The position numbers were made by a program, and so were the translations under genes. Below the pieces are notes generated by a model. That model was not told where the DNA came from. It saw nothing but the letters and a program-made list of their open reading frames with translations, and did not search any database. From an uncultured Actinomycetes bacterium (GTDB lineage Bacteria > Actinomycetota > Actinomycetes > Streptosporangiales > Streptosporangiaceae): 24,000 bases of DNA. This document shows, in pieces, positions 1-12,852 of the stretch; positions within the stretch are counted from its first letter, which is position 1; every line of letters begins with the position of its first letter. The stretch covers positions 281,591 to 305,590 of the forward strand of contig CAWDTK010000011.1 of NCBI GenBank assembly GCA_963805255.1. The letters are read 5' to 3'.

Positions 1-982
1 GGTAGTCGACGCCCATGTGGCTGGCGTCGAAGAGCTCGAAGTGGATCACGTCTTCGGATACCCCGATGTCGCGGAGGGTGGCGTAGAACGCTTCGGCGCC
101 CAGGTCGAGGAACCATTCGTCCCGGGTGCCGGCGTCGATCCAGATGGCGCGCAGCGACGGGAGCACGTCCGCATACCGGGGGGCCATCCGGACCGGATCC
201 CAGTCGAGCCAGCGCTGCCAGACGTCGGGCCGGATCTCCGCGGTCGCTGGGTCGAACGGCAAATCTACCGAGCCGTCCTTGTTGGCGGAAAAGCACGCCG
301 ACACCCCGAGCAGCATCAGCAGTTCGTGGTCCTCGGGCTTGGTGAACGGGACCCGCGACCGGAAATCATCCCACCAGCGCCAGATGCCGCCGTCGTAGCC
401 GCGCAGGTGCCGGGCCGACTTCGCGAACTCCGGGATGTAGGAGTACTCGTACAGCGAATCACCCGAGTGCGTAGCCAGCGCGCCGAACAGATCCGGCCGC
501 AGCATCGGGGTGATCATCGCGCCGAACCCTCCGCTGGATTTCCCCATGATCGCGCGGTGAGCCGGGGCCGCCTTGGTGCGGTAGTGCTCGTCCACCCAGG
601 GCACCACCTCGTCGCACAGGTAGGAGTGATACCGCCCGGTGCCGGGTGAGTCCACGAACTGGCTGCCGCCGTAGGAGGTCCATGCGTCGACAAACACGAC
701 GATCGCGGGCGGCGCGTCACCGCGCGCGAACACCGCGTCGGCCGCCTCCGGGAAGGGCTGCCGGTAGGGTGACCGGTTGCGCCACATGGCCACGTGGCCG
801 GTGTAGCCCTGGATGACGTAGACCGATGGGTACCGGCGGCCGGCGTCCTCCTCGTATCCCGGCGGCACGTAGACGAGCAACGGCCGCTCAGGCGGGTCCC
901 CCAGCGGGTTGCCCCGCAGTAGTTCGCTGATGATCACGTGCTCATCGATGCGTCCAGCCAGATCAGCGGACCAGGGCAGCAT
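1..982 (-). CDS. Esterase-family alpha/beta hydrolase (putative-esterase / esterase D-like), partial: 3' end lies beyond the left edge
   Basis: Absent from the ORF track because no stop codon lies in the window. Reverse-strand translation from the ATG at 982-980 gives MLPWSADLAGRIDEHVIISELLRGNPLGDPPERPLLVYVPPGYEEDAGRRYPSVYVIQGYTGH... The nucleophile elbow AIMGKSSGGFGAMIT (G-x-S-x-G) is encoded near 510-555. Third codon positions are almost all G/C in this frame. The listed + ORF 17..649 is its antisense shadow. Confidence 0.8.
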   Translation of the reverse strand, partial: MLPWSADLAGRIDEHVIISELLRGNPLGDPPERPLLVYVPPGYEEDAGRRYPSVYVIQGYTGHVAMWRNRSPYRQPFPEAADAVFARGDAPPAIVVFVDAWTSYGGSQFVDSPGTGRYHSYLCDEVVPWVDEHYRTKAAPAHRAIMGKSSGGFGAMITPMLRPDLFGALATHSGDSLYEYSYIPEFAKSARHLRGYDGGIWRWWDDFRSRVPFTKPEDHELLMLLGVSACFSANKDGSVDLPFDPATAEIRPDVWQRWLDWDPVRMAPRYADVLPSLRAIWIDAGTRDEWFLDLGAEAFYATLRDIGVSEDVIHFELFDASHMGVDY

Positions 983-1171
983 TTCCGGGTTCCTTCCAGG
1001 TGGCGGCTCGGCAGCAGGGGCGCATCCGGCGAGCCGATGGCCGGGGACAGTAAGCCGAACGGGCTTCGCCGCTGTGCATGTTCTTCCTATCCGACATCCG
1101 CAACCTGAGTATGGACAGTCCCCCACCAAATACTTAGTGTAATTTTTGAAACACTTATAGTGACCTGCTGA

Positions 1172-1978
1172 ATGCGCCGGCCCTCTGTTGCGGCGCGCAG
1201 CCGCGACGGACGGAGGCAGCCCTTGCTGGGTCCAGAGACATGGATCATCCTCGTGGCCGGACTGGTCAGCGCGGGCATCGCGGTGGCCATCGCGGTGCTC
1301 ATCAGGCACCGCGACTTCGAGCCCGAGGACGTCACCATCGGTTTTCTCGGGCCCTCGCTGGCCGCGCTGTACCTGCTCGTGCTCGCGCTGTCGCTGGCCA
1401 CCGAGTGGCAGACGATCAGCTCCGCTCAGCAGGCGGTCAGCAACGAGGCGGTCGCCGTCCGGCAGCTCTACTGGTCGGCCAGCGGGCTGCCTCCGGCGGC
1501 CGCAACCAGCCTGCGCGCGCAGGTCCGTGGCTACGTAACGACGGCCGTCAACCACGACTGGCCGCAGATGGAGCACGGCACGCTGGACGACCAGACCGAG
1601 CAGAAGCTGGCCGGGATGACCAGCTACGTGCTCCGGATCAATCCGGCGAATTCCGGCGCCGTGACCGCCCAGCAATACGCGCTGAGCCAGCTCAGCGTCA
1701 TGACCACGGCGCGCGCGCAGCGCGAGTCGACCGCGGAGTCGCAGTTGCCGAACGGCCTGATGGCCGCCGTCATCGCGACGTCGGTCGTGGTCAGCATGTT
1801 CCCGTTCGCCGGGGGAATCCGGTCGGCACCGGCGTCCATCGCGCTGGCGGCTCTCCAGGCCGCGATGGTAACCGTCGGCATCGTCGTCGTCTTCCAGCTC
1901 AATCACGCCTTTTCCGGGCCGCTCGCGGCGGGCTCGGGGCCGCTCTCCGCGGTGGCACAGCAGATCAGCGCGCGGTGA
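1172..1978 (+). CDS. DUF4239-like integral membrane protein
   Basis: 268-aa ORF with hydrophobic helices at both ends (WIILVAGLVSAGIAVAIAVLI, LAALYLLVLALSLA, LMAAVIATSVVVSMF, LQAAMVTVGIVVVF). The central segment EWQTISSAQQAVSNEAVAVRQLYWSASGLPPAAATSLRAQVRGYVTTAVNHDWPQM is typical of the DUF4239 family as I remember it. It is preceded by an AT-rich intergenic region (about 1100-1170). Confidence 0.75.
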   Translation: MRRPSVAARSRDGRRQPLLGPETWIILVAGLVSAGIAVAIAVLIRHRDFEPEDVTIGFLGPSLAALYLLVLALSLATEWQTISSAQQAVSNEAVAVRQLYWSASGLPPAAATSLRAQVRGYVTTAVNHDWPQMEHGTLDDQTEQKLAGMTSYVLRINPANSGAVTAQQYALSQLSVMTTARAQRESTAESQLPNGLMAAVIATSVVVSMFPFAGGIRSAPASIALAALQAAMVTVGIVVVFQLNHAFSGPLAAGSGPLSAVAQQISAR

Positions 1979-2700
1979 GGGCGCTCCGCACCGGGCTGGG
2001 ACCCGTCATCCGGGTGAGCGAGATCGCGACGGCTCTCCGCACCGGGCTGGGACCCGTCATCCGGGTGAGCGAGATCGCGACGGCTCTCCGCACCGGGCTG
2101 GGACCCGTCATCCGGGTGACCGAGATCGCGACGGCGCTCCGCACCGGGCTGGGACCCGTCATCCGGCTCAACATGGCGGTGCCCGCCATCGCCGCGCCGC
2201 TGGCGCTCGCCGCGGCTCCGCCACCGCACACCGGCGGCCTGCCGTACCCGTGGGGAGCGGGAGCGGCAGCGGCCGGCCCGCAGCCGACGCCTTTCCGGTC
2301 GTTTTTCTGGTCTCCGCAGCCGTCAGCGGCCGCCCGGCCCACGCCGGTCCCGCCCCCGCCAGCCGCCGGCCCGCCGCCGCATCCCCGGCCGTCACGGCCG
2401 CCGCGGCCGGCTGTCGTGAGCGCGGTGCCGCCCGCGCCGCTGACCCCGCCGCCGGCCGTCACGCCGCCGGCCGTCACACCGCCGGCCGTCACGCCGCCCA
2501 CCGTCACACCGCCGAAGCTGCGCCAGCCGCCGGCCCCGCTGACGCGTCCGGCGGCGGTGATCTACCGGGGCCGGGCCGCCCGGCTGCTCGCCCCGGCACC
2601 CCACCAGCCGCCGCCGTCCATCCCTCTGATCGTGCTCATCGCTACCGTCCTTACGCCGTGCGTCGCCGCCGCGGTCACCCGCTTCGCCAGGGGCCGTTAG
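1975..2700 (+). CDS. Hypothetical repeat- and proline-rich protein with a C-terminal membrane anchor (4 x 17-aa repeat, PPAVT x4, terminal TM helix)
   Basis: GTG at 1975 overlaps the TGA (1976-1978) of the upstream gene (GTGA coupling) and opens the frame of track ORF 1240..2700. It reads VRALRTGLGPVIRVSEIAT x ~4, then MAVPAIAAPLALAAA, a long Pro-rich tract, and IPLIVLIATVLTPCVAAAVTRFARGR*. G/C occupies about 18 of 20 third positions within a repeat unit, and the 51-bp unit is a multiple of 3. The start is uncertain; an alternative ATG lies at 2173. Confidence 0.5.
   Translation: MRALRTGLGPVIRVSEIATALRTGLGPVIRVSEIATALRTGLGPVIRVTEIATALRTGLGPVIRLNMAVPAIAAPLALAAAPPPHTGGLPYPWGAGAAAAGPQPTPFRSFFWSPQPSAAARPTPVPPPPAAGPPPHPRPSRPPRPAVVSAVPPAPLTPPPAVTPPAVTPPAVTPPTVTPPKLRQPPAPLTRPAAVIYRGRAARLLAPAPHQPPPSIPLIVLIATVLTPCVAAAVTRFARGR
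1984..2166. repeat. 51-bp tandem repeat, about 3.6 copies (ctccgcaccgggctgggacccgtcatccgggtgagcgagatcgcgacggct)
   Basis: Copies at 1984-2034 and 2035-2085 are identical. Copy 2086-2136 has 2 substitutions, and a 30-bp partial copy ends at 2166. Each unit contains a small hairpin (acccg-tcatc-cgggt). Confidence 0.95.
2449..2508. repeat. 15-bp tandem repeat x4 (ccgccggccgtcacg) encoding PPAVT
   Basis: Four adjacent units at 2449-2463, 2464-2478, 2479-2493 and 2494-2508. The last is diverged (PPTVT). The array is in frame with the 1975..2700 ORF. Confidence 0.85.
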
Positions 2701-2993
2701 GCCGGGCTCACCGGAGAGGCGTCAGGTGAGCCTGAACCACCGCGGTGATCTCGCCGGGGCCTCGTAGCTGGCCAGGTGGGCGGCGCCGCGGACGACCATG
2801 AACCGGGCTGCGGGATCGCGCGGGCGATCTGCGCACCGTGGCCGCGCATCTCGAACCTGAGCAGGCGGAAATGCTCCCGCAGCGCCGGGGCCTGCCTGTC
2901 CCACAGGCCCTGGCTGGTTCCGAACGACGTCCCGAGGGCCACGACCGGCGCGCCCTCCGGCCCCTCCAGCGTGGCCCGCAGGACCTCAGACAT
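2697..2993 (-). pseudogene. pcaD: 3-oxoadipate enol-lactonase (pcaD-type alpha/beta hydrolase) remnant with an internal deletion and frameshifts
   Basis: From the ATG at 2993 the frame reads MSEVLRATLEGPEGAPVVALGTSFGTSQGLWDRQAPALREHFRLLRFEMRGHG, an enol-lactonase-type N-terminus. The G-x-S-x-G catalytic core is missing. C-terminal-type residues RFMVVRGAAHLASYEAP (frame of ORF 2722..2904) and GEITAVVQAHL (third frame) follow directly. The ATG overlaps the TGA of the upstream remnant (gATGtcTGA). Confidence 0.65.
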
Positions 2994-3216
2994 CGAAGAA
3001 AACCGTCTCGTTGTCACCTTGCAGGCGGATGTCAAATCTCAGCGTTGCTCCGGGCTCCGGCACGGCAGCACCAGCGGCTGCTTCGGATCGAAGGGCAGTC
3101 GAGCGGTAACCGGCGTAGTCCAGCGGCGGGTGGACACCGCAAGGCCGGCCGTAGGACGGGAGGACCAGGCGGGACGGGGCAGCCGCGGCGGCGGTCACCG
3201 GCACGTCAGCGGTCAT
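2986..3216 (-). pseudogene. pcaH/pcaG: In-frame fusion remnant of the protocatechuate 3,4-dioxygenase beta subunit N-terminus (pcaH) and alpha subunit C-terminus (pcaG)
   Basis: 76-aa ORF. VHPPLDYAGYRSTALR resembles the conserved HP..DY.PYRSS.LR segment near the PcaH N-terminus. The last residues LRFDIRLQGDNETVFFDV resemble the PcaG C-terminus (..RFDI.LQGE.ETVFFD.). Everything between, about 400 codons in intact pcaHG, is absent. A strong SD (aggagg, 4 nt before the ATG at 3216) is retained. Confidence 0.65.
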
Positions 3217-3224
3217 ACGACCTC

Positions 3225-3989
3225 CTATTCCTTCGCTTTCGCGGTCAAGCCGCGCAGTGCGGCCAGCTCGGCCGGCGAGGGCGGGTCCACCGTGTGCAAC
3301 TGCGGCGCGGCGGCCAGGTCCCAGCCGGTTCTGCTCCGCGCGTCCTGGACTGTTACATCGGGGTACAGCCCGGTCAGCACGAATTCCTGCGTCGCCGGGT
3401 CCGGTTCAAGCACGCCGAGGTCGGTGATGATCTTGACGGGGCCGGCGCCGGTGAGGCCGAGGCGCTCGCGTGTTCCCGGGCCGGACCCGTACCCCACCGA
3501 CGTCACGAAGGCCACCCGCGCCACGAACGAGCGGAGCGTCTGCCGTACGACGACAATGACCTCACGGCAGGACGCGGCGATTTCGGGGGCGCCGCCGGAT
3601 CCGGGCAGCCGTGTCTTCGGGGCCGCGTAGTCCCCGCCGATGACCGTGGTGTTGATGTTGCCGAACTTGTCGATCTGGGCGGCACTGAGGAACCCGACGT
3701 CAATGCGGCCGGGCTGGAGCCAGTAGTTGAAGATTTCCGGGACGCTGACCACGGCGTCCGCGGTCTCGGCCAGGATGCCGTCGCCGATGGACAGCGGCAG
3801 CCGGCTTGGCTTGGCCCCGATCGTGCCCGACTCATAGATAAGGACAAGCCCGGGAGCGTGCGTGGCGCGGGCCAGGTTCGCCGCCGCGCTGGGCAGCCCG
3901 ATCCCGACGAAGCAGGTGACGTTGTCCCGCAGTGCCCGCGCGGCCGAGACCGTCATCATCTCGTCGGAACTGTAGTCCGGCATAGGCAC
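3225..3989 (-). CDS. pcaJ: 3-oxoadipate CoA-transferase subunit B (glutaconate-CoA-transferase-like family)
   Basis: 254-aa ORF: DEMMTVSAARALRDNVTCFVGIGLPSAAANLARATHAPGLVLIYESGTIGAKP...VVSVPEIFNYWLQPGRIDVGFLSAAQIDKFGNINTTVIG, the CoA-transferase B-subunit pattern known from actinomycete pcaJ. The GTG at 3989 abuts the pcaI stop (3990-3992). An alternative ATG lies at 3983. Confidence 0.85.
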   Translation of the reverse strand: MPMPDYSSDEMMTVSAARALRDNVTCFVGIGLPSAAANLARATHAPGLVLIYESGTIGAKPSRLPLSIGDGILAETADAVVSVPEIFNYWLQPGRIDVGFLSAAQIDKFGNINTTVIGGDYAAPKTRLPGSGGAPEIAASCREVIVVVRQTLRSFVARVAFVTSVGYGSGPGTRERLGLTGAGPVKIITDLGVLEPDPATQEFVLTGLYPDVTVQDARSRTGWDLAAAPQLHTVDPPSPAELAALRGLTAKAKE

Positions 3990-4973
3990 CTACTTTCCCT
4001 TTGCTGTGCCGGGCGCCGCTGTGCCGGGCGCCGCTGTGCCGGGCGCCGCTGTGCCGGGCGCCGCTGTGCCGGGCGCCGCTGTGCCGGGCGCCGCTGTGCC
4101 GGGCGCCGCTGTGCCGGGCGCCGCTGTGTCCGCCGGCCCGAAGATCTCGGTGTCCAGCCACCGCCCGAACGCATCCCGGTCGCGGGCGATCAGGTCCCAG
4201 GCCAGGTAGTAGTCGTTGTCGCGGTCGTAGTAGCCGAGGGCGTAGGACGGCCGGGAGCCGCCGGGGACCGCGGCCACGTAACTGACCGTCCACGACGGCA
4301 ATACCACGCCGCCGGGGCGCGGGTCGAGATGCGGCACGACCTCCTCCACCGTGACGATCGACCGGTGCGCGGCCAGTACCGCCTCCTTCTGCACCCCGGT
4401 GATGCCCCAGAATTGGACGTTCCCGCTGGTGTCGGCGCGCTGGGCGTGGATGATGGCCACGTCCGGGTTGACCGCGGACACGGCGGTGAGGATCTCGCCG
4501 GTGAACGGGCACGTGACGGGGCGGACGCTGGCCCCGTCCATTCCGCCGGAACCGTCCGTTACGTCGCCGGCACTTTCCATGAGACCGGTCCCGCTGTAGC
4601 CGCGCAGCACGCCGAACGGCAGCCCGGAGGCGCCCGCCACGTAGCGGTTCGCCATCCCCGCGTGGCTGTGTTCCTCCAGTACCAGCGGGGCCGGCCAGGA
4701 ATGCTCCACGGCGTCCCGGAACCGGTGCAGCGACCCGACGCCGGGGTTGCCGCCCCAGGAAAACACCAGCTTGCGTGCGCAGCCCGCCCCGATGAGCTGG
4801 TCGTAGATGAGATCGGGGGTCATCCGGATGAGGGTGAGGTCGCGCCGGCCCTGCCGGATCACCTCGTGCCCGGCGGCGAACGGGATCAGGTGGGTGAAGC
4901 CCTCCATAGCCACGGTGTCGCCGTCCCGCACGGCCAGCGCGACCGCCTCGGCCAGTGACACGATCTCGGCCAT
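3990..4973 (-). CDS. pcaI: 3-oxoadipate CoA-transferase subunit A, with a C-terminal (TAAPG)x8 repeat tail
   Basis: From the ATG at 4973: MAEIVSLAEAVALAVRDGDTVAMEGFTHLIPFAAGHEVIRQGRRDLTLIRMTPDLIYDQLIGAGCARKLVFSWGGNPGVGSLHRFRDAVEH...HAQRADTSGNVQFWGITGVQKEAV. This is the actinomycete PcaI / glutaconate CoA-transferase A pattern. The track ORF 3990..5264 extends further 5', but that part belongs to a pcaC remnant and non-coding DNA. Confidence 0.85.
   Translation of the reverse strand: MAEIVSLAEAVALAVRDGDTVAMEGFTHLIPFAAGHEVIRQGRRDLTLIRMTPDLIYDQLIGAGCARKLVFSWGGNPGVGSLHRFRDAVEHSWPAPLVLEEHSHAGMANRYVAGASGLPFGVLRGYSGTGLMESAGDVTDGSGGMDGASVRPVTCPFTGEILTAVSAVNPDVAIIHAQRADTSGNVQFWGITGVQKEAVLAAHRSIVTVEEVVPHLDPRPGGVVLPSWTVSYVAAVPGGSRPSYALGYYDRDNDYYLAWDLIARDRDAFGRWLDTEIFGPADTAAPGTAAPGTAAPGTAAPGTAAPGTAAPGTAAPGTAAPGTAKGK
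4003..4137. repeat. 15-bp tandem repeat (gctgtgccgggcgcc): 8 perfect copies plus 1 degenerate copy
   Basis: Perfect copies run back to back from 4003 to 4122, and the degenerate unit is at 4123-4137. The array is in frame on the minus strand, giving TAAPG x8 at the extreme C-terminus of pcaI. Confidence 0.95.
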
Positions 4974-5044
4974 ATCGCCCCCCGTTGGCGTCCACTGGGT
5001 GCACACTCGTTCGACATCCGTACAATAGCGGCCGTTTGCGGCGT

Positions 5045-5201
5045 CTATGTCAGGAGGGTCACCCGGAGGTCGTAGCGGGTGATGAAGTCCTGGAACGGCT
5101 CGGTGAAACGCAGTGGTGCTCGCGACGGCCCGGTCGACGTGCTCATCGCCGAGAACCTCGCGCCGGACGGACATGCCCTGCCGGGCCCGTTCGGCATCCA
5201 T
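5045..5201 (-). pseudogene. pcaC: 4-carboxymuconolactone decarboxylase (pcaC) N-terminal remnant, frameshifted and truncated
   Basis: From the ATG at 5201: MDAERARQGMSVRREVLGDEHVDRAVASTTAF matches the PcaC N-terminus pattern (..G..VRR.VLGD.HVDR....T.F). The expected continuation TEPFQDFITRY appears only after a 1-nt frame change and then stops (TAG at 5047-5045). About 80 further codons of a normal PcaC are missing. Confidence 0.55.
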
Positions 5202-5209
5202 GGTGGTCA

Positions 5210-6582
5210 GGCCATTCCTTTCGGTGCGCGGCGAGGGCGGCGTCGACGAACTCCCCGGCCGCACCCAGGTCAGCCGGCCGGATCGAGGGCCGATTCGATC
5301 TGCTCGGCCGTGATCCCCGCCGCCTCCAGCCGTTCCGCCGACTGCGGCAGGCCGAGCAGGACGTCACGGAGCGGAAGGCCGGCCGACACCGCGCGTGCCC
5401 CCGCCTCGGCGACGAGATCGTGCGCGGCCGCCCGGCCCAGCGTGTCCGCCAGCAGCGACGTCACGTGCTCGGCGAGCGGCAGCCCGTTGGCCACGGCCAG
5501 GTTGGCGCTCATCCGCGCCGAGTCCACGGTCAGGCCGGCGAGCATCTCGGCCGCCCAGGACGCGGCCGAGCCGGTCAGGCTGAGCAGGTCCGCCAGCGTT
5601 TCCCATTCGGCGTGCCAGGCGCCCGCGGCCCGCTGGTGCTCCTGCTCGGCCACGGTCACCATGGTCGCGAGCAGGCCCGGAACCCGCTTGGTACAGCCGA
5701 GTATGGCGATGGCGGCGACCGGGTTCTGCTTCTGCGGCATGGCCGAGGAGCCAGGCGCGCTTCGGCGAGCTGGGGCCCTCATGGACTTCTGCTACTTCCG
5801 ACTGCGACAGCAGGGTGACATCGCGCGCGATCTTGCCCAGCACGGCGGCTGCGCCAGCCAGCGCCCCGGCCAGCTCCACCATCCGCAGCCTGCTCGTGTG
5901 CCATGGCAGCACCGGCCGCGCCAGCCCCAGCTCGTCGGCCAGCAGCGCCGCCACCCGCGGTCCCGCGTCATCCAGGGCGGCCAGGGTGCCCGCCGCGCCG
6001 CCGAACTGCACGGCGAGCCGGTCCGCGCGGACCCGCGCGAGCCCGGCCCGCGCGTCGTCCAGAGCGGCCAGCCAGCCCGCCGCGACCAGGCCGAACGTCA
6101 CGGGGACGGCCTGCTGGAGGAGTGTTCGGCCGATCATGATCGTGGATCGGTGCGTTACCGCGAGCCCGGCGGCGGCCTGGGCGGCGGTGGCGAGATCGGC
6201 GCCGATGACGCCGAGCGCCTCGCGCGCCAGCAGCATGGCGGCGGTGTCCACGATGTCCTGGCTGGTCGCGCCGCGGTGTACGGCGCCCGCCGCGGTGCGG
6301 GGTACCTGTTTCATGAGGGCACGGCTCAGCGCGGGGACGGGGTTGTCGGCCAGCGCGGCCAGCGCGGCCAGTTCGGCCAGGTCGAAGTTCTCCGGGATGG
6401 CCGCCTTGGTCACCGCGGCGCCGGCCCCCGCGGGCGCGAGCCCGGCCCGCTCCAGCGCGCGGGCGAGCGCAGCCTCCACCTCCAGCATGGCCCGCAGCCA
6501 CGCGTGGTCCCCGGCGTCGACGCCGCCGCGGCGGAACACGCCGCCAAACATCACCCCGCGGCTCGCGTCCTGCTCAGACATG
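5210..6582 (-). pseudogene. pcaB: 3-carboxy-cis,cis-muconate cycloisomerase (fumarate-lyase superfamily) with at least two frame disruptions
   Basis: The ATG at 6582 is preceded by gaaaggag. The N-terminal about 270 codons (MSEQDAS...HAWLRAMLEVEAALARAL...HRGATSQDIVDTA...LLSQSEVAEVHEGP) are in the frame of ORF 5364..7115. The signature GSSAMPQKQNPV and the following about 150 codons are in the frame of ORF 5270..5782, so the frame switches within about 5745-5790. A TGA at 5272-5270 cuts ...ALDPAG*, while the conserved tail (Y)LGAAGEFVDAALAAHR continues in a third frame (ORF 5143..5367). Confidence 0.75.
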
Positions 6583-6666
6583 GTTTCGACCACTCCTTTC
6601 CACCGGGTCACGGGTCCCTCGCGGCACGTCTCGCTCGCGGACCACGATAGACGTAGGGTCGAGACC

Positions 6667-8025
6667 ATGAACGCGCCTTTGTTTGCGCTGGGCGGGCCAG
6701 GTCTCCCCCAGGAACGCCGCGTCGTGACCGAAATCCCCGGACCGGCCTCGCGTGAGCTGCTCGGGCGCCGGCAGCGTAGCGTCGCGCGGGGGGTCAGCCA
6801 TGTGCTTCCGGTGTTCATCACGGCTGCCGGCGGGGGCGTCCTGGTCGACGCCGACGGCAACTCGCTCATCGACTTCGGCTCGGGCATCGCCGTGGTGTCG
6901 GTGGGCAACGCCGCGCCGCGCGTGGTGGAGCGGGTCAGCGAGCAGGTCGCGCGGTTCACCCACACGTGCTTCATGGTCGCCCCGTACGAGGAGTACGTCG
7001 CGGTCTGCGAGGAACTCGCGCGCCGGACGCCGGGCGACCACGAGAAGCGTTCCGCGCTGCTCAACTCGGGCGCGGAGGCGGTCGAGAACGCCGTGAAGAT
7101 CGCGCGGCACGCCACCGGGCGCCAGGCGGTCGTCGCGTTCGACCACGCCTACCACGGGCGCACCAACCTCACCATGGCGCTGACCGCGAAGAACATGCCG
7201 TACAAGCAGGGGTTCGGCCCATTCGCCGGTGAGATCTACCGGGCGCCGATGGCCTACCCGCTGCGCTGGCCGGGCGGCCCGGAGGCCTGCCGGGCCCACG
7301 CGCTGGAGGTCATCACCGGGCTGATCCACACCCAAATCGGCGAGGAGAACGTGGCCGCCGTCATCATCGAGCCGATCCAGGGCGAGGGCGGGTTCATCGT
7401 GCCGCCGCCCGGGTTCCTGGCCGGGCTGGCCGAATTCTGCCGCACCTACGGGATCGTGCTGATCGCGGATGAGATCCAGACCGGTTTCTGCCGCACCGGC
7501 GACTGGTTCGCCTGTGAGCACGAGGGCGTCGTCCCCGACCTGATCACGACGGCCAAGGGGATCGCGGACGGGCTGCCACTCGCGGGGGTCACCGGGCGCG
7601 CCGACCTGATGGACTCGGTGCACGTGGGCGGCCTGGGCGGCACCTTTGGCGGCAACCCGGTGGCGTGCGCGGCCGCGCTCGGCGCGATCGAGACGATGGC
7701 CGCCGAGGGCCTGGCCGGGCGGGCCCGGCACATCGGCGACATCATGCTGCCCCGGCTGAACAAGCTCGCCGAGGCCACGCCCGGCATCGGGGAGGTCCGG
7801 GGCCGCGGCGCGATGATCGCCGTCGAGCTGGTCATGCCGGGCGGCCTCGAGCCCGCTCCCGCGGCGGCGGGTCAGGTCGCCAAGGCCTGCCACGCCGCCG
7901 GGCTGGTCGTGCTGACGTGCGGGACGTTCGGGAACGTGCTGCGCTTCCTGCCGCCGCTGGTCATCGGCGACGCGCTGCTCGAGGAGGGCCTGTCGATCCT
8001 GGAGGACGCCTTCGCCGCGCTGTAA
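6667..8025 (+). CDS. gabT: 4-aminobutyrate--2-oxoglutarate aminotransferase (class-III PLP aminotransferase)
   Basis: From the ATG at 6667: MNAPLFALGGPGLPQERRVVTEIPGPASRELLGRRQRSVARGV...DFGSGIAVVSVGN...AFDHAYHGRTNLTMALTAK.MPYKQGFGPFA.EIYRAP...IIEPIQGEGGFIVPP.GFL...LIADEIQTGFCRTG...DLITTAKGIADGLPL...GGLGGTFGGNPVACAAAL. This is a full-length GabT pattern including the PLP lysine (TTAKG). The upstream part of track ORF 5815..8025 is antisense to pcaB. Confidence 0.9.
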   Translation: MNAPLFALGGPGLPQERRVVTEIPGPASRELLGRRQRSVARGVSHVLPVFITAAGGGVLVDADGNSLIDFGSGIAVVSVGNAAPRVVERVSEQVARFTHTCFMVAPYEEYVAVCEELARRTPGDHEKRSALLNSGAEAVENAVKIARHATGRQAVVAFDHAYHGRTNLTMALTAKNMPYKQGFGPFAGEIYRAPMAYPLRWPGGPEACRAHALEVITGLIHTQIGEENVAAVIIEPIQGEGGFIVPPPGFLAGLAEFCRTYGIVLIADEIQTGFCRTGDWFACEHEGVVPDLITTAKGIADGLPLAGVTGRADLMDSVHVGGLGGTFGGNPVACAAALGAIETMAAEGLAGRARHIGDIMLPRLNKLAEATPGIGEVRGRGAMIAVELVMPGGLEPAPAAAGQVAKACHAAGLVVLTCGTFGNVLRFLPPLVIGDALLEEGLSILEDAFAAL

Positions 8026-8090
8026 CGATGGCCGGGAGACGATGGCCGGGAGACGATGGCCGGGAGCTAGGCATAAACGATGCCCGGGAG
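8025..8090. repeat. 14-bp tandem repeat (acgatggccgggag) x3 perfect, plus a fourth imperfect copy that carries the downstream gene's start codon
   Basis: Perfect units at 8025-8038, 8039-8052 and 8053-8066. A 10-bp spacer follows, then acgatgcccgggag at 8077-8090, whose ATG (8080) starts the next CDS. The array begins on the last base of the gabT stop codon (TAA 8023-8025). Confidence 0.9.
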
Positions 8091-8988
8091 CAAGGCGGAG
8101 CGGCACGGTGACCGTCGGCTCGCCGTGCATCGGGAACTGAGTTCCGGCCTGGCCGAGATCGTGCCCGATATCAGCCGGACGGACGCCTGGATTCTCTATC
8201 TCGCCGGTGCGCCGCAATCCCAGGTGGACCTGGCCGATCCGACGTACCTGGAGTTCGAGTACATTCGCCGGATCGCGCATCTGCTGGACGTCGCCGCCCC
8301 CGTGGGTGAGCCGCTGCGCGTGCTGCACCTGGGCGGCGGCGCGCTGACGCTGCCGCGCTACGTGGCGGCCACCCGTCCCGGCTCGGGCCAGCTCGTGGCG
8401 GAATCCGACGCGGCGCTGATGGACCTGGTCCGGGAGCATCTGCCGCTGGGCCGCCCGCGGCCGTCCCCGCGGCGGCTGCGGATCCGGATCGGTGACGCCC
8501 GGGAGGTCCTGGAGTCCGTGCGCGCGGCCAGCTTCGACGTCGTGATCAGCGATGTCTTCGCCGGGCCGCGGACTCCGGCGCATCTGACCACGGTGGAATG
8601 CGCCGCCGCGGCGGCGCGGGCGCTGCGGCCCGGCGGGATCTACGCCGTGAACGTGGCCGACGGGCCGCCGCTCCGGCACGCCAAGGAACAGGTCTCCACC
8701 ATCGGTTCCGTCTTCCCGTCCGGCTACATGATCGCTGAGCCCGCGGTGCTGCGCCGCCGCCGGTTCGGCAACCTGGTACTGGCCGGAAGCCGCCGCGCGT
8801 TCCCCGAAGAAGAACTGCGGCGCCGGGCGGCGGCCGACCCGTTTCCCGCCCGGCTGGTGTGCGGCGCGAACCTGGTGCGTTTCGCGGCCGGGGCGCGGGC
8901 CGTCACCGACGCGACCGCGCGGCCCTCCCCCCTGCCCCCGCCCGAGACGTTCGGCCCGCCGCCCCAGCGCCCGCCGGATCAGGCCTAG
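8080..8988 (+). CDS. Spermidine/spermine-synthase-like SAM-dependent methyltransferase-fold protein
   Basis: 302-aa ORF: ...WILYLAGAPQSQVDLADPTYLEFEYIRRIAHLLD...LRVLHLGGGALTLPRYVAATRPGS.QLVAESDAALMDLVREHL...DVVISDVFAG.RTPAHLTT.E....ARALRPGGIYAVNV. The Rossmann GxGxG-type motif and spermidine-synthase-like layout are common in actinobacteria. Confidence 0.75.
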   Translation: MPGSKAERHGDRRLAVHRELSSGLAEIVPDISRTDAWILYLAGAPQSQVDLADPTYLEFEYIRRIAHLLDVAAPVGEPLRVLHLGGGALTLPRYVAATRPGSGQLVAESDAALMDLVREHLPLGRPRPSPRRLRIRIGDAREVLESVRAASFDVVISDVFAGPRTPAHLTTVECAAAAARALRPGGIYAVNVADGPPLRHAKEQVSTIGSVFPSGYMIAEPAVLRRRRFGNLVLAGSRRAFPEEELRRRAAADPFPARLVCGANLVRFAAGARAVTDATARPSPLPPPETFGPPPQRPPDQA

Positions 8989-9008
8989 CCGGCCTCGCCC
9001 TCGGCGGA

Positions 9009-9520
9009 TCAGGCGTGAGTCGCTGTTCCGGTGCGGCGCATGCGGCCGGCCGCGTCGACAATCACGGCGACCAGATCAGCGAACCGCTCGTCCGGGTCGC
9101 CGAAGATGCGCGGTCCGGCCGCGACGACGTGCGGGTGGGTGTCCCGGTTCAGCTGCCCGGCGCGGCGCTCGAGGGAGTAGCGGTCATCGCCGACGGCCGC
9201 CGTCTGGGCGACGTCTCCGTATTCCGGCCTGAAGGCCGGCGCACAGACGGCCATATTGGTAGCGGTCATCGCCGGCGGCCGCCGTCTGGGCGACGGCGAC
9301 GTCTCCGTATTTCCGGCAGCGGAGCCGGATCCGCGTCGATCAGCGCGATCATGGCCCGGGTGCCGGGTATATGCCGATGATCGCGGACGGCCGCGTCACG
9401 GTGCCGACCCGGATATTCCTGCTGTCGCGGGTCACCGAGTCCTGGGCCGCGTCCCGGGACAGCGGCCCCCGCGTCGCGGTCGTGCCCGGCTCGGCGGACG
9501 GCTAGGCAGCGGCCCCCATC
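9009..9520 (-). pseudogene. Degenerate coding remnant of unknown family (frame breaks, in-frame stop, internal duplication)
   Basis: GC3-rich minus-strand coding signal is split over several frames. These are ...AEPGTTATRGPLSRDAAQDSVTRDSRNIRVGTVTRPSAIIGIYPAPGP* (preceded by an in-frame TAG), MIALIDADPAPLPE..., and ORF 9009..9269 (...PEYGDVAQTAAVGDDRYSLERRAGQLNRDTHPHVVAAGPRIFGDPDERFADLVAVIVDAAGRM...). I recognise no family. Confidence 0.3.
9177..9315. repeat. Local direct duplication: about 55-bp segment repeated 82 bp downstream, with a 6-bp and a 1-bp insertion
   Basis: gtagcggtcatcgccgacggccgccgtctgggcgacgtctccgtattccggc (from 9177) is matched by gtagcggtcatcgccggcggccgccgtctgggcgacGGCGACgtctccgtatTtccggc (from 9259). 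Confidence 0.85.
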
Positions 9521-9809
9521 GGCGGATAAACGAATTTGCCCACTCCGCCAGCGCCGGCCCGGGGTGTCCGCTACTCTGCTGAAGCTTGAGGACAGGGCGA
9601 TACCGACCGCCGGGCGGATTGCACGCGGGGGCCGGGGAATGGGACGTCTCGCTGCGGTCAGGCCAGCGAGCTGGCTGATCAGCGGGTCAGACGAGCTTGC
9701 TGACGCTTAGGCTTGGCGTCGGTGTCAGGGCGCACAGGCCGTCAGATGGTAGTGGAGGTACGGAGTTTGGCCAACGGGACCGCAGCGTGACATTGGCGTA
9801 GGAGCTTGC

Positions 9810-11213
9810 ATGGAGATGCCACCTCCCGGCTGGTATGAGGATCCCGTTGCCACGGGAGGCCTGCTGCGCTGGTGGGACGGGACGCAGTGGACGGAGCACA
9901 CCGCTCCCGCGGGAGGCGCCCCCCAGACCGCCATCGAGCAGGTGCCCGCCGCCGTCGAGCGTGCACCCGGGGTCGCTGCCGACCCGGCCACGCCGGACCC
10001 GGCCACGCCGGACTTGGGCTTGCCGGACTTGGGCTTGCCGGACTTGGGCTTGCCGGACTTGGGCTTGCCGGACTTGGGCTTGCCGGACTTGGGCTTGCCG
10101 GACTTGGTTTTGCCGGCTCCGGTGGCCCCGCCCGTTCCGCCCGTTCCGCCCAATGACGCTGACCCCTCACTGACCGACTGGTTCCAGAGCATTCCCTTTC
10201 CCGTGGTCCGCCGCGACGATCACGCCACCGCCAACTCGACGCGCGTGCTGGAGCGTGCGGGACCGGGGGCGCTGGCGGAAATTGGCTGGCCGCACGGCAC
10301 GCCGGTCACCGCGGGCGACACGCCCCTGCTGGAGCGCGGCGAAACGGCCGGGATGCTGCGCCGCAACCGCACCCGGCTGATGTGGGGGCTGGCCCTTGGC
10401 ACGGCCGTCGCCATGCTCATCACCGGCGTCCTGGTCGCGGTGTTCGGTTCCGCCCCGGCGGCGCACAGCACGCCGGCCGCCGCGGCGGGCCATCCGTCGG
10501 CCGTGCGGACGCTGACGCCGAAGGCGTCCGCGTCGCCGCCGAGCACGCCGTCGACGGTCCCTACGACCGGCACCCCGGTCACTGACCCCGCGTCCGGCCT
10601 GTCCTACGCGACGCTCGCCGCCCCATGGCAGGCCGGCTGCCCGGCGCCGATGAGCAACGCAGTGTTCACCTGGACGGCCGGGGAGAGCGCGGTGGCCGGG
10701 ACCCTCGCCTCGGCGGGCGGGGCCCCCTGGTACGCCAGCGCCTGTTCCGGCCTGCTCGGCCAGCAGTACCCCTACACCGGCGTCGCCGACCTGCCCCAGA
10801 CGGCGATGAACCTGGTCGGTGCGTTCGACCCGGCCTACTACACCGCCCTCCCGCACGTCCGGGCCACCCAGCAGAACAACCCGCTTCAGGTCAGCGGGCA
10901 TCCGGCGTGGATCGTGCAGTTCCTGATGACCTACCCGACCGCGGCCAGCCAGGGCCTGGCGTGGCAGACACAGCTCGGCGCGGTCGTGGTCGTGGACCGC
11001 GGCGCGGGGCAGCCGCCCGCCGTCATGTACGCCACGGTGCCGGACAACCTGGGCACCGCCAACGTCGGCGTGATCCTGGCCTCGATGCAGCTGAACGCCC
11101 CGGCAAGCCCGGCCACCCCGGCAAGCCCGGCCACCCCGGCAAGCCCGGCCACCCCGGCTTCGCCGCCGGCCCCCGCCGCCGCGAGCACTGCCCCTTCTGG
11201 CCCCAATCCCTAG
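9810..11213 (+). CDS. DUF2510-domain membrane protein with an internal (PDLGL)x7 repeat and a C-terminal (PASPAT)x4 repeat
   Basis: The ATG at 9810 lies 5 nt after taggag. The N-terminus PPPGWYEDPVATGGLLRWWDGTQWTEHT is the GWY.DP...RWWDG..WT motif of DUF2510. A single TM helix follows (LMWGLALGTAVAMLITGVLVAVFG), then a Ser/Thr/Pro linker and an extracytoplasmic domain of about 200 aa. GC3 is high throughout. Confidence 0.8.
   Translation: MEMPPPGWYEDPVATGGLLRWWDGTQWTEHTAPAGGAPQTAIEQVPAAVERAPGVAADPATPDPATPDLGLPDLGLPDLGLPDLGLPDLGLPDLGLPDLVLPAPVAPPVPPVPPNDADPSLTDWFQSIPFPVVRRDDHATANSTRVLERAGPGALAEIGWPHGTPVTAGDTPLLERGETAGMLRRNRTRLMWGLALGTAVAMLITGVLVAVFGSAPAAHSTPAAAAGHPSAVRTLTPKASASPPSTPSTVPTTGTPVTDPASGLSYATLAAPWQAGCPAPMSNAVFTWTAGESAVAGTLASAGGAPWYASACSGLLGQQYPYTGVADLPQTAMNLVGAFDPAYYTALPHVRATQQNNPLQVSGHPAWIVQFLMTYPTAASQGLAWQTQLGAVVVVDRGAGQPPAVMYATVPDNLGTANVGVILASMQLNAPASPATPASPATPASPATPASPPAPAAASTAPSGPNP
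9981..10115. repeat. 15-bp tandem repeats: gacccggccacgccg x2, then gacttgggcttgccg x6 perfect plus 1 variant
   Basis: Units run back to back from 9981. The six perfect PDLGL units cover 10011-10100, and the variant (gacttggttttgccg) is at 10101-10115. The array is in frame in the DUF2510 gene. Confidence 0.95.
11099..11160. repeat. 18-bp tandem repeat (ccggcaagcccggccacc) x3 perfect plus a partial copy, encoding PASPAT
   Basis: Units at 11099-11116, 11117-11134 and 11135-11152, then a diverged continuation. The array is in frame near the 3' end of the DUF2510 gene. Confidence 0.9.
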
Positions 11214-11245
11214 CGGTCCCAACCCCCTGCCGGTTCCGGCGAGCC

Positions 11246-12532
11246 CTACGCGGTTCCGCGCAGCGCGTCGGTCAGGATCGCCAGGCCCTCTCGCGCCTCG
11301 GGCTCGGTCAGGGTCAGCGGCGGCGCCATCCGCAGGGTGTTACCGAAAAGGCCGCCCTTGCCGATGAGCAAGCCCCGGGCCCGCGTTTCCTCCAGCATCC
11401 GGGCGGCCAGCGCCGGGCTGGGCTGGCCGGTCGCGGGGTCAACCAGGTCGATGGCGAACATCAGGCCCTTGCCGCGCACCTGCCCGGCGGCCGCGCACCC
11501 GGCCGCGGCGTCCCGCAGCCCCGTGATGATGATCCGGCCCAGCTCGCCGGCGTTGCGCTGCAGGTCGTGGGAGAGCAGGTAGTCCAGGGTCGCGCTGGCC
11601 GCGGTGGTGGAGACCGGGTTGCCGCCGAAGGTGGAGACCCCGTTCCCGCGCAGCCCGTCCAGCAGGCCGCCGCGCGCGACCACGCCGCCGATGGCGAACC
11701 CGTTGCCGAGTCCCTTGGCGAACGTCATCGCGTCGGGCACCACCCCGTGCGCGCCGATGCCCCAGAAGTGCTCGCCGGTGCGGCCCCACCCGGTCTGCAC
11801 CTCGTCGGAGATGAACAGGATGCCGTGCTCATCGAGCACGTCCTGGTACGCGGCGAACAGCCCGTCCGGGGGCATGGTGAAGCCGCCGACGCCCTGGATC
11901 GGCTCGGCGATCAGGCACGCGACGTCGGCCGGGTGCGCCGCGGTGGCCAGCACGTTCCGCAGGTCCGCGACACACGCCTCGATGTAGGCGCCGTCGGGCA
12001 TGCCGTCGAACGCGGGCAGGTGCCGGTCGGTGCCGTGCAGGTAATGCACGCCGAACGGGGCCAGCGAGGAGGGTTTCCAGCCGGCGTTGCCGGTGATCGC
12101 CACCGCGCCGAACGACCGGCCGTGATAGCTGTTCCGCAGCGCGAGCACCTGGTCGGCGCGCCGGGCGGCGGTCGCCAGCAGCAGCGCGGTCTCGTTGGCC
12201 TCGGTGCCGGAGTTGGTGAAGAACACCTTGGCGTCCGGGATCCCGGACAGCCGGGTGATCTTCTCGGCGAGCTCGACCTGGCTGCGGATGAGGTACAGCG
12301 TCGACGTGTGCACGATCCCCGACGCGATCTGCCGCTCGACGGCCTCGCGGACCTCGGGCACGTCGTAGCCGAGCATGTTGGTGAGGATCCCGCCGAAGAA
12401 GTCCAGGTAGCTGCGGCCAGCCGCGTCGGTGACCCGGCATCCCTTGCCGCTGACCAGCTCGATCGGCTCGTGGTAGTAGGTCGCGACCCAGCTGGGGATG
12501 ACGGCGCGATGGCGTGCGTACAGATCTGGCAT
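11246..12532 (-). CDS. Class-III (acetylornithine/omega-amino-acid type) PLP-dependent aminotransferase
   Basis: From the ATG at 12532: MPDLYARHRAVIPSWVATYYHEPIELVSGKGCRVTDAAGRSYLDFFGGILTNMLGY...FFTNSGTEANETALLLA...LRNSYHGRS...IAEPIQGVGGF..PP.G...ISDEVQTGWGRTG.HFWG....GV.PD.MTFAKGLGNG...STFGGNPV. The track ORF 11246..12859 over-extends 5' into AT-rich non-coding DNA. Confidence 0.9.
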   Translation of the reverse strand: MPDLYARHRAVIPSWVATYYHEPIELVSGKGCRVTDAAGRSYLDFFGGILTNMLGYDVPEVREAVERQIASGIVHTSTLYLIRSQVELAEKITRLSGIPDAKVFFTNSGTEANETALLLATAARRADQVLALRNSYHGRSFGAVAITGNAGWKPSSLAPFGVHYLHGTDRHLPAFDGMPDGAYIEACVADLRNVLATAAHPADVACLIAEPIQGVGGFTMPPDGLFAAYQDVLDEHGILFISDEVQTGWGRTGEHFWGIGAHGVVPDAMTFAKGLGNGFAIGGVVARGGLLDGLRGNGVSTFGGNPVSTTAASATLDYLLSHDLQRNAGELGRIIITGLRDAAAGCAAAGQVRGKGLMFAIDLVDPATGQPSPALAARMLEETRARGLLIGKGGLFGNTLRMAPPLTLTEPEAREGLAILTDALRGTA

Positions 12533-12852
12533 GGTCCCAGTCTGCCTGGTCAGGACGTCAGGTGCACGCGATGGAACTGGCCGACGTGGCGAGCCTGCAC
12601 GTCGCCCTGCTGGCCCGGGCCGCCGCGGCCGACCGGCGGCCAGGCTGAGATCCCGATCCCGAACGGGCCCAGCCACGCGTTGTCCCGCGGCACCAGAGTT
12701 ACGGGCAGAGTCTCTTTGGTGCACGCCAACCTGAAAGCCGCCGAGCATTACCCTGGCCACCTGCGCGTATCTATTTCCGATTACTAAGAGTACATTCGAA
12801 GTTACTGATAGTGCTCTTACGGCGGCTTTACGTCGGTAACGGGGGTATTGCG

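Follow-up and report, generated by a model that had tools for sequence, protein, structure and literature searches.

In Corynebacterium and Rhodococcus, pcaIJ and pcaHGB are found in separate units. The pca operon of Streptomyces starts with pcaI and is repressed by PcaV, and its composition varies naturally, with pcaIJF missing from the pca operon of S. scabies (PMC3616709). The locus described here was analysed within a 24-kb stretch of DNA, the whole of which is referred to as the window. It shares with Streptomyces-type clusters the same seven enzyme functions and a pcaI that probably heads a regulated unit, and its composition has likewise varied. As in other actinobacterial pca clusters, PcaIJ is of the glutaconate-CoA-transferase type and not of the proteobacterial ScoAB type. 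On the other hand, the gene order is B-C-I-J-H-G-D, the operator-like motif (CGAAC-N3-TGTGC) is unlike the PcaV sites of Streptomyces (TCAGxxxxCTGA), and only stubs are left of four of the seven genes. No gene for 3-oxoadipyl-CoA thiolase (PcaF) was found in the window or in the extra flank of a second assembly (L148), and no regulator gene was found in the window.

The best explanation, to which we assign a probability of about 0.7, is that the locus is an eroded copy of a pcaBCIJHGD cluster with three real deletions, a pcaB that is likely intact, and a pcaIJ pair kept for activation of 3-oxoadipate. The locus involves neither a new mechanism nor a new gene family.

Gene order and internal deletions

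On the minus strand of the window the genes read pcaB - pcaC' - pcaI - pcaJ - pcaH'::'pcaG - pcaD' (Table 1), in agreement with the original prediction. Each remnant matched its own Pca family (Pfam, NCBIfam), with homology far above chance, and in a close relative (L001) the seven genes are all intact and in the same order. Alignment of the two loci gave 84-96% nucleotide identity outside three gaps of about 420, 1217 and 490 bp. From homology and synteny, the locus is a partly eroded relic of the seven-gene pcaBCIJHGD cluster that uncultured Streptosporangiales/Trebonia-like soil and peat actinobacteria of this clade typically carry. A Shine-Dalgarno sequence and overlapping stop/start signals can be seen in the window sequence as they had been described. 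The pca region is rich in tandem repeats, and the relic region sits between pcaB and a bestrophin-like gene.

Table 1. Positions of the pca genes, remnants and associated features in the window.
Feature	Position	Strand	Evidence
pcaB (3-carboxy-cis,cis-muconate cycloisomerase)	5143..6581	-	Pfam Lyase_1/ADSL_C; NCBIfam TIGR02426; tblastn
pcaC' (4-carboxymuconolactone decarboxylase)	5072..5201	-	tblastn with L001 PcaC, residues 3-44; TIGR02425 positions 2-42/123
Conserved non-coding element upstream of pcaI	4999..5030	-	Conservation across relatives
pcaI, CoA-transferase subunit A, 327 aa	3990..4973	-	Pfam CoA_trans; 1POI_A match E=2e-29
Perfect 15-bp x 8.4 tandem repeat encoding the PcaI (TAAPG)8 tail	4003..4128	-	Tandem Repeats Finder, 100% matches
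pcaJ, CoA-transferase subunit B, 254 aa	3225..3989	-	Pfam CoA_trans; 1POI_B match E=6e-41
pcaH'::'pcaG fusion, 76-codon ORF	2986..3216	-	Pfam PCDO_beta_N; TIGR02423 positions 174-193/193
pcaD' (3-oxoadipate enol-lactonase)	2708..2993	-	TIGR02427 positions 5-51/251; alignments with L001, L003

Three separate internal deletions have hit pcaC, pcaHG and pcaD. The pcaC remnant comprises 44 of 142 codons (about 45 had been predicted) and contains a +1 frameshift at 5108; the deletion of about 420 bp took the remaining gene together with about 170 bp of the pcaC-pcaI spacer, with its junction at about 5071-5063. The predicted collapse of pcaH and pcaG into 76 codons was also confirmed. The fusion ORF starts with codons ~1-40 of pcaH, which contain a -2 frameshift at ~3089, and ends with the last 19 codons of pcaG; the two parts are joined by about 23 nt of filler, and the deletion amounts to about 1217 bp relative to L001. 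Out of the 258 codons of pcaD, codons 1-53 and about 42 C-terminal codons remain, so that the prediction was close for the first part (about 55) and too low for the last (about 25). This deletion is in-frame, spans ~490 bp and is located at a CACGG microhomology (junction ~2839-2833), and two -1 frameshifts are found in the C-terminal part, at ~2814 and ~2757. The pcaHG and pcaC junctions showed no clear microhomology. The PcaD segment expected to carry the nucleophile is missing. A complete operon would require full-length PcaH, PcaG, PcaC and PcaD; the window encodes none of these, and the central segment of PcaD is gone. Four functions had been proposed to be lost by separate deletions; ring cleavage, decarboxylation and lactone hydrolysis (pcaHG, pcaC and pcaD) were removed in this way, and cycloisomerisation probably was not, pcaB being likely intact (see below).

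A second public assembly (L147/L148), 99.7-99.8% identical to the window and located on a different contig (196.5 kb versus 696.6 kb), has the same three deletions and the 76-aa ORF. That the deletions are artefacts of collapsed or mis-joined contigs, with full-length genes existing in the organism, is very improbable. In its favour, the source looks like a metagenome assembly from error-prone long reads, two assemblies of one population disagree by an indel roughly once per 700 bp, and tandem repeats are abundant in the region. However, the junctions and the 76-aa protein are identical on two different public contigs, the pcaD junction has only 5 nt of microhomology and no long repeat to collapse on, the remnants bear later frameshifts and substitutions, and the same genes bear other deletions in sister species. 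The early caveat that the assembly might have mis-called this region most likely holds for the frame breaks in pcaB; it does not hold for the three deletions, which are present in the second assembly too. A metagenome scan with the 76-aa fusion ORF returned ordinary PcaG C-termini and no locus covering residues 1-76, and is uninformative on independent assemblies.

The remnants pcaH' and pcaC' are little changed, with window-branch substitutions by codon position of 0/0/5 and 1/0/2, respectively, and the losses of pcaH and pcaC in the window therefore look recent. The idea that pcaD decayed long before the others was softened, as the difference in window-branch changes (16 versus 3 and 2) shrinks with a more distant third taxon.

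Frame breaks in pcaB

The pcaB sequence of the window is read in three frames (6581-5766, 5752-5273 and 5268-5197 by tblastn), as predicted, and TIGR02426 matches it in pieces (positions 16-264 and 265-338). The breaks are single extra bases (T and G) at 5753 and 5271, both at GCCGGC motifs. The second assembly lacks both bases and L147 encodes an intact PcaB (488-aa gene call), so the split is true of the window sequence and probably does not stand as biology. With bases 5753 and 5271 removed, the window encodes a PcaB of 478 aa with a translation identical to that of L147, and the ancestral state at the break sites (L001, L002, L003 and L014) is the L147 state. The sequences that would contradict real frameshifts at the two sites are GCGCCGGCTCC and GGCTACCTGG. 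Full-length PcaB scored 339 bits on TIGR02426 (cut-off 355.75), the same as PcaB from L001. The original pcaB stop codon has been lost, and the reading frame continues through the pcaC remnant, adding about 20 aa at the end of the protein.

Over 14 kb, 39 positions differ between the window and the second assembly; 30 of these are indels, and there are no substitutions outside repeats and GCCGGC sites. Because indels exceed substitutions, the differences point to error rather than divergence. Nine of the 21 discrepancy events fall within 2 nt of GCCGGC, a motif covering 3.1% of positions (P about 5e-9), and the copies of the motif at which breaks occur are not the same in the two assemblies. 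Nanopore consensus sequences are known to go wrong at methylation motifs (PMC6591954), and related MFD genomes are nanopore-only assemblies (PMC12313526). In this lineage GCCGGC is probably methylated. The frame breaks in pcaB are most likely assembly or consensus errors and not mutations; alternatively, the window may derive from a strain that truly has the bases at 5753 and 5271.

It is unlikely that both frameshifts are real and pcaB a true pseudogene, which would leave pcaIJ as the sole survivors of a fully dead protocatechuate operon. Such a reading would agree with the presence of both extra bases in the window, with neither insertion being in a long homopolymer, with the confinement of all frame breaks to the pca relics (none in about 18 kb of other coding sequence), and with the flat distribution of window-branch substitutions past the first break (4/4/6, small numbers). 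On the other hand, the second assembly lacks both bases, with an excess of indels over substitutions that fits error better than divergence, and both sites lie at a motif where discrepancies are strongly enriched. Moreover, the ancestral state in the four relatives is that of L147, relatives without pcaC and pcaHG keep pcaB, and window-branch substitutions in pcaB are biased towards third positions (10/9/29, p=1e-4), a bias still present in the 5' part of the gene. The argument that all six frameshifts across the window pca genes are real, there being none elsewhere, was dropped for the two pcaB sites given the second assembly.

Judging from the near-identical assembly and the error signature, the organism probably has an intact pcaB. 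Since the frame breaks are most likely assembly error, the retained set is probably pcaB plus pcaIJ, not pcaIJ alone, and pcaB also stands beside pcaIJ in relatives; the statement that only pcaIJ is intact is accordingly not supported. For pseudogene calls this is a caution: long-read consensus errors tied to a motif probably account for two of the six frameshifts, and a survey of pseudogenes in nanopore-only genomes would score too much decay, in this lineage above all at GCCGGC.

The CoA-transferase pair and the element upstream of pcaI

Both pcaI and pcaJ are full length, as predicted and as confirmed by Pfam domains and tblastn; the adjacent A and B subunits each contain a CoA_trans domain (PF01144, E=2e-21 and 2e-39). 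PcaJ comprises 254 aa from a GTG start or 252 aa from ATG, the public gene call starting two codons later, and is 90-94% identical in amino-acid sequence to its counterparts in L001-L003 and L014. An exact-protein look-up gave no match for the 254-aa form; the 252-aa form and the 76-aa fusion ORF each led to the public contig. With GctAB of Acidaminococcus fermentans (PDB 1POI, family I) the pair shares the two-subunit architecture, an end-to-end alignment and the ESG motif, in which Glu53 of PcaJ (IYESG; LIYESGTIG in the window aligned with IIVESGLMD in GctB) corresponds to the subunit B glutamate that we take, from the 1POI work, to be the catalytic residue. In contrast, identity to GctAB is limited, the gene context indicates 3-oxoadipate and not glutaconate, and the window PcaI has a (TAAPG)8 tail. 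PcaI scored 34.7 bits on TIGR02429 (pcaI_scoA_fam, cut-off 128.5) and PcaJ 39.5 bits on TIGR02428 (pcaJ_scoB_fam, cut-off 243.55), which places both outside the ScoAB-type subfamily. PcaIJ is a two-subunit family I CoA-transferase of the glutaconate-CoA-transferase type with a conserved catalytic Glu. Its putative specificity for 3-oxoadipate is suggested by gene context, with complete clusters in L001 and about 40 relatives.

The 11-aa loop insertion of PcaI and its C-terminal (TAAPG)x8 repeat are both at places where relatives differ naturally from one another. An independent repeat, (GAPEAAQ)x6, is found at the same site in PcaI from L014. The repeat interior has the same copy number and no difference between the two assemblies.

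A 32-nt element precedes pcaI and consists of a -10-like TATTGT followed by the palindrome-like CGAACGAGTGTGC (5013-5001), 40 nt before the ATG. It is identical to that of L003 and has 0-1 mismatches in L001, L002, L003 and L014. Of 78 related loci, 46 have the motif CG[CA]A[CA]N3-5TGTNC in the 180 nt preceding pcaI, compared with 0.01 expected, and the pca region of the window has it upstream of pcaI only. IclR-family regulator genes adjoin pcaIJ in L079 and L053. By its conservation, the element is a putative promoter and IclR-type operator; the PcaV (MarR) operator of Streptomyces was rejected as the identity of the motif, the sequences being unrelated. A simple sigma-70 promoter scan of 2400-7000 gave no match, and two terminator-like hits were at chance level. 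Because a conserved promoter/operator-like element precedes pcaI, pcaIJ probably forms its own regulated unit, which makes the single transcription unit of the original prediction doubtful.

Recurrence in relatives and retention of pcaIJ

In the sister species L002 and L003 the same genes have been hit by other deletions, which are not nested with those of the window. In L003, pcaC is missing along with most of pcaHG, and pcaB is kept beside pcaIJ; this species has PcaH 195-240 and PcaG 1-38, which are absent in the window, and lacks PcaH ~9-40, which the window has kept. In L002 pcaC, pcaHG and pcaD are wholly absent. Also L010, L056 and L053 (the cultured Planomonospora venezuelensis, with a pcaIJ-pcaF-pcaB-IclR unit) have, like L002, pcaB and pcaIJ together without pcaC, pcaHG and pcaD within 10 kb on either strand, so that the set is seen in two or three other lineages. 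None of these four loci shows remnants of the lost genes, whereas the window still has stubs and so records the transition; in L053 a thiolase and an IclR regulator also adjoin pcaB and pcaIJ, and both are absent in the window. The locus is an ordinary example of cluster erosion, which recurs among uncultured Streptosporangiales-like bacteria of soil and peat.

Pairwise dN/dS was 0.13-0.27 for pcaI and 0.10-0.26 for pcaJ, and window-branch substitutions by codon position were 6/2/16 and 10/6/20, mostly third positions, as expected if pcaIJ is under purifying selection. Since the losses may be recent, in the window lineage alone an intact pcaIJ is no proof of continued use. We nevertheless regard it as improbable that pcaIJ, with pcaB, serve no function and have simply not yet been struck in a cluster that recently became useless. 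The scarce divergence of pcaH' and pcaC', only at third positions, fits recent deletion; pcaJ has a modest non-synonymous excess on the window branch (16:20 versus 6:26 on the L001 branch, p=0.04) and on the L002 branch; and PcaI has gained a 40-aa repeat tail and the loop insertion. Against this, the PcaI insertions are at naturally variable sites, the catalytic Glu is kept, and the neighbours suffered three large deletions and four small indels in about 2.2 kb, with none in the 1.75 kb of pcaIJ or the upstream element. In L002, L010 and L056, pcaB and pcaIJ are full length with neighbours erased without trace, and L010 versus L005 gave dN/dS of 0.17-0.31. Of the two explanations first offered for the intact pair, recent decay agrees with the pcaH and pcaC losses; retention for use is favoured because pcaIJ is intact with low dN/dS where its neighbours are fully erased (L010).

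In the preferred explanation, an eroded cluster with retained pcaB and pcaIJ, three internal deletions took out the greater part of pcaC, nearly the whole of pcaHG and the centre of pcaD, small frameshifts arose later in the remnants, and the pcaB breaks of the window would be long-read consensus errors at the probably methylated GCCGGC motif. Both pcaB and pcaIJ would remain working, and the putative promoter and IclR-type operator would allow pcaIJ expression independent of the decayed neighbours. PcaIJ would probably still convert 3-oxoadipate to 3-oxoadipyl-CoA, with the substrate supplied by catechol or hydroxyquinol routes or by pca genes elsewhere in the genome, and the local ring-cleavage, decarboxylase and lactonase copies may have become dispensable.

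It is doubtful that pcaB and pcaIJ are a self-sufficient module, repeatedly kept by selection after loss of pcaHG, pcaC and pcaD. If so, they would serve something outside the classical protocatechuate route, possibly the scavenging of carboxymuconate or 3-oxoadipate released by neighbouring lignin degraders, and the window would record the transition to such a module.

The three microdeletions and the independent parallel deletions in sister species amount to recurrent loss of the protocatechuate ring-cleavage branch with the CoA-transferase step kept, which affects marker-gene inference of a role in the turnover of lignin-derived aromatics for these uncultured bacteria. Relics of pca genes were also observed at other loci (L022, L035 and L039), and many actinobacteria have pcaIJ homologues alone.

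Remnants of the pca genes and their deletions

In the close relative L001 (L numbers denote related loci) the genes pcaB-pcaC-pcaI-pcaJ-pcaH-pcaG-pcaD form one uninterrupted row, and the same gene order was found in about 40 other related loci. When the L001 proteins were searched against the window, PcaJ (residues 1-254) and PcaI (residues 1-272) matched in a single frame each and PcaB in three frames, while matches were also obtained for PcaC residues 3-44 (in two frames), PcaH residues 6-32, and PcaD residues 1-69 plus the C-terminal end. Each stub was assigned to its own family by Pfam and NCBIfam, and the predicted relic of pca genes is real. The stop/start overlaps and a GGAGG ahead of a 76-codon fusion ORF are present as originally described, as is the pcaD stub, except that its C-terminal part comprises about 42 codons and not 25.

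Features of the pca region and its surroundings (window coordinates)
Feature	Position	Description
PcaB residues 1-272	6581-5766	vs L001 protein; three pieces in three frames
PcaB residues 293-452	5752-5273
PcaB residues 454-479	5268-5197
pcaC stub		NCBIfam TIGR02425 positions 2-42 of 123
pcaH stub		Pfam PCDO_beta_N
pcaG stub		NCBIfam TIGR02423 positions 174-193 of 193
pcaD stub		NCBIfam TIGR02427 positions 5-51 of 251
pcaC deletion	junction about 5071-5063	~420 bp, codon 45 into pcaC-pcaI spacer
pcaHG deletion	junction about 3066-3042	~1217 bp, pcaH codon ~41 to 19 codons before pcaG end
pcaD deletion	junction about 2839-2833	~490 bp, internal, in frame; in CACGG microhomology
Conserved 32-nt stretch	5030-4999	0-1 base different in L001, L002, L003, L014
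Discrepancies, window vs L148	11169/11168, 10637, 10108-10101, 8987, 5753, 5271, 4139-4131, 2367/2361, 2275
Bestrophin-like gene	1172-1978	inside segment 983-2723
51-bp x3.7 tandem repeat	1980-2166	inside segment 983-2723
Very GC-rich, Pro-rich ORF	ends at 2700	hydrophobic C-terminus; inside segment 983-2723
Further short tandem repeats	8025-8066, 10007-10116, 11098-11158, 20233-20268	perfect or near-perfect
Class-III aminotransferase paralogues	6700-8025 and 11246-12859	3 kb apart, opposite strands

Nucleotide alignment of the window with L001 as reference revealed three gaps, so that the separate losses originally proposed hold for pcaC, pcaHG and pcaD, but probably not for pcaB, whose frame is most likely unbroken in the organism. 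Small indels are found in the stubs as well: +1 in pcaC' (5108), -2 in pcaH' (about 3089) and -1 twice in pcaD'. The three deletions are real, since they are common to a second assembly and sister species have their own versions. The second assembly (ENA ERZ25039458 contig_57474, 196.5 kb; L147/L148) is 99.7-99.8% identical to window positions 1-13984 and shares its pcaC stub, fusion ORF and pcaD stub; it is one of two public contigs on which the 76-aa fusion ORF is recorded. In L003 pcaC and most of pcaHG are gone and pcaD is still present, and in L002 pcaC, pcaHG and pcaD have been lost with no trace left. L003 retains PcaH 195-240 and PcaG 1-38, which are absent in the window, and is without PcaH ~9-40, which the window has; the end points are not nested, and the two pcaHG deletions are therefore independent.

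The pcaH' and pcaC' stubs have hardly changed (window-branch substitutions by codon position 0/0/5 and 1/0/2, respectively), and their deletions thus look recent. The flatter and larger set of changes in the pcaD stubs (8/6/13) hints that this gene was relaxed earlier, the numbers being small and the result dependent on the third taxon.

The reading frame of pcaB

The original prediction that only pcaIJ is intact is probably wrong, because the PcaB reading frame is unbroken in L147 and the breaks in the window lie at GCCGGC. Compared with L147, the window has single extra bases at 5753 and 5271; without them the gene encodes 478 aa that match the L147 protein exactly, GSSAMPQKQNP and the AGYLG tail being in frame as they are in every relative. 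At these two sites an intact pcaB would read GCGCCGGCTCC and GGCTACCTGG.

Over the 14 kb compared, 39 positions differ between the two assemblies, which represent the same population; 30 of them are indel positions, and almost no substitutions occur outside repeats. Nine of 21 discrepancy events fall within 2 nt of GCCGGC, although no more than 3.1% of positions are that close to the motif (P about 5e-9); the nine include all six events that window 1-9218 has outside the 51-bp repeat. The broken copies differ between the assemblies: L148 has breaks in a DUF2510 gene, a PAS gene and the pcaI tail, and the window in pcaB and in the spermidine-synthase-like gene, whose stop codon is altered. This clustering of mostly single-base indels suggests that GCCGGC is methylated and corrupts the long-read consensus, and hence that the organism has a restriction-modification system. 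Consensus errors in nanopore assemblies are documented to concentrate at methylation motifs (PMC6591954), and related MFD genomes are nanopore-only, assembled with Flye/Medaka (PMC12313526); contig naming and error profile point to the same data type for the window.

The evolutionary evidence agrees with an intact gene, in that window-branch pcaB substitutions are 10/9/29 by codon position (p=1e-4) and pairwise dN/dS (0.24-0.29) is not above the values between intact-operon genomes. Taken together, we put the probability that the pcaB frame breaks are artefacts at about 85%. At 5143-5201 the window has TGC where L001 and L014 have the pcaB stop TGA overlapping the pcaC ATG, whereby PcaB gains ~20 residues and the pcaC stub is read in another frame.

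The CoA-transferase genes and the element upstream of pcaI

As predicted, the CoA-transferase pair is conserved: PcaI and PcaJ are full length and under purifying selection (dN/dS 0.10-0.27), with mostly third-position substitutions on the window branch (pcaI 6/2/16, pcaJ 10/6/20). Among solved structures glutaconate CoA-transferase (1POI) is nearest to them, and the ESG glutamate of subunit B is kept. Neither protein reaches the cut-off of its ScoAB-type NCBIfam model, so that gene context is the basis for assigning 3-oxoadipate as substrate. PcaI has a loop insertion of 11 aa and a (TAAPG)8 tail (4003-4128), both within segments variable among relatives. The tail is a hotspot of perfect in-frame tandem repeats, L014 having an independent (GAPEAAQ)6 at the same spot (about 9800-9955); that of L010 is Pro-rich.

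Upstream of pcaI the conserved 32-nt stretch, in a spacer otherwise not conserved, includes a -10-like TATTGT followed by CGAACGAGTGTGC. Of 78 loci, 46 have a degenerate palindrome, CG[CA]A[CA]N3-5TGTNC, no more than 180 nt ahead of pcaI (0.01 expected); in the window's pca region the palindrome occurs nowhere else. Genes for IclR-family regulators adjoin pcaIJ in L079 (Micromonospora) and L053 (Planomonospora). As the identity of the motif, the Streptomyces PcaV operator was rejected, the two sequences being unrelated. We infer a putative internal promoter and operator, which would make pcaIJ independent of transcription through pcaB and pcaC'; given this conserved element, the single transcription unit originally proposed is probably two. 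In the aminotransferase-pcaB spacer (6582-6680), TATCGT is followed by CGAGCGAGACGTGC; this repeats the arrangement upstream of pcaI (TATTGT and CGAACGAGTGTGC) in degenerate form and may offer the putative regulator a second site. In L003 (about 9000-9110) a ~31-nt unit (ccgggtgaccctcccgactcctgacgtctgc), duplicated in tandem, takes the place of pcaC; the unit is related to the sequence directly upstream of the conserved pcaI element.

Erosion among relatives and the surroundings of the locus

The window is actinobacterial DNA (GC ~70%), and its nearest relatives by PcaJ identity, L001 (92%), L002 (91%), L003 (90%) and L014 (94%, partial match only), are Streptosporangiaceae/Trebonia-like genomes of uncultured bog and soil organisms. 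Synonymous distances make L002 the sister of L003 (dS about 0.06); those separating the window, L001 and this pair from one another are about equal (dS 0.2-0.28), with L014 falling outside them all.

In this group it is common for the cluster to have eroded around a pcaIJ core that stays constant. Loci L002, L010 and L056 have pcaB and pcaIJ without pcaC, pcaHG and pcaD, cultured Planomonospora venezuelensis has pcaI-pcaJ-thiolase-pcaB-IclR, further pca relics occur at L022, L035 and L039, and pcaIJ homologues stand on their own in many actinobacteria. The intact L005 is a closer relative of L010 (dN/dS 0.31 for pcaB, 0.17 for pcaI and 0.20 for pcaJ) than L056 is, and the losses in L010 and L056 are thus separate events. 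The locus is a case of ordinary, recurrent catabolic-cluster erosion with a sequencing artefact on top. It is of value chiefly as a warning to anyone calling pseudogenes in metagenome genomes built from long reads and, in a small way, as one more instance of peat and soil actinobacteria losing protocatechuate ring cleavage in parallel.

Neighbouring genes encode an esterase, bestrophin-like and spermidine-synthase-like proteins, signalling proteins and pentose-phosphate enzymes, and a GABA-type aminotransferase gene is divergent from pcaB; neither a thiolase nor a regulator of the pca genes was found in the 24-kb window. The ~1.7 kb that separates the esterase gene from the pcaD stub (983-2723) is absent from all 80 related loci; the other assembly has this segment as a single 499-aa ORF, with 7 positions different within its repeat. 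The further tandem repeats include an intergenic one (14 bp x3), one inside the DUF2510 gene (15 bp x7.3) and one of 18 bp x3.4, and the window lineage seems prone to small tandem duplications. The two class-III aminotransferase genes share about 68% nucleotide identity over ~300 bp.
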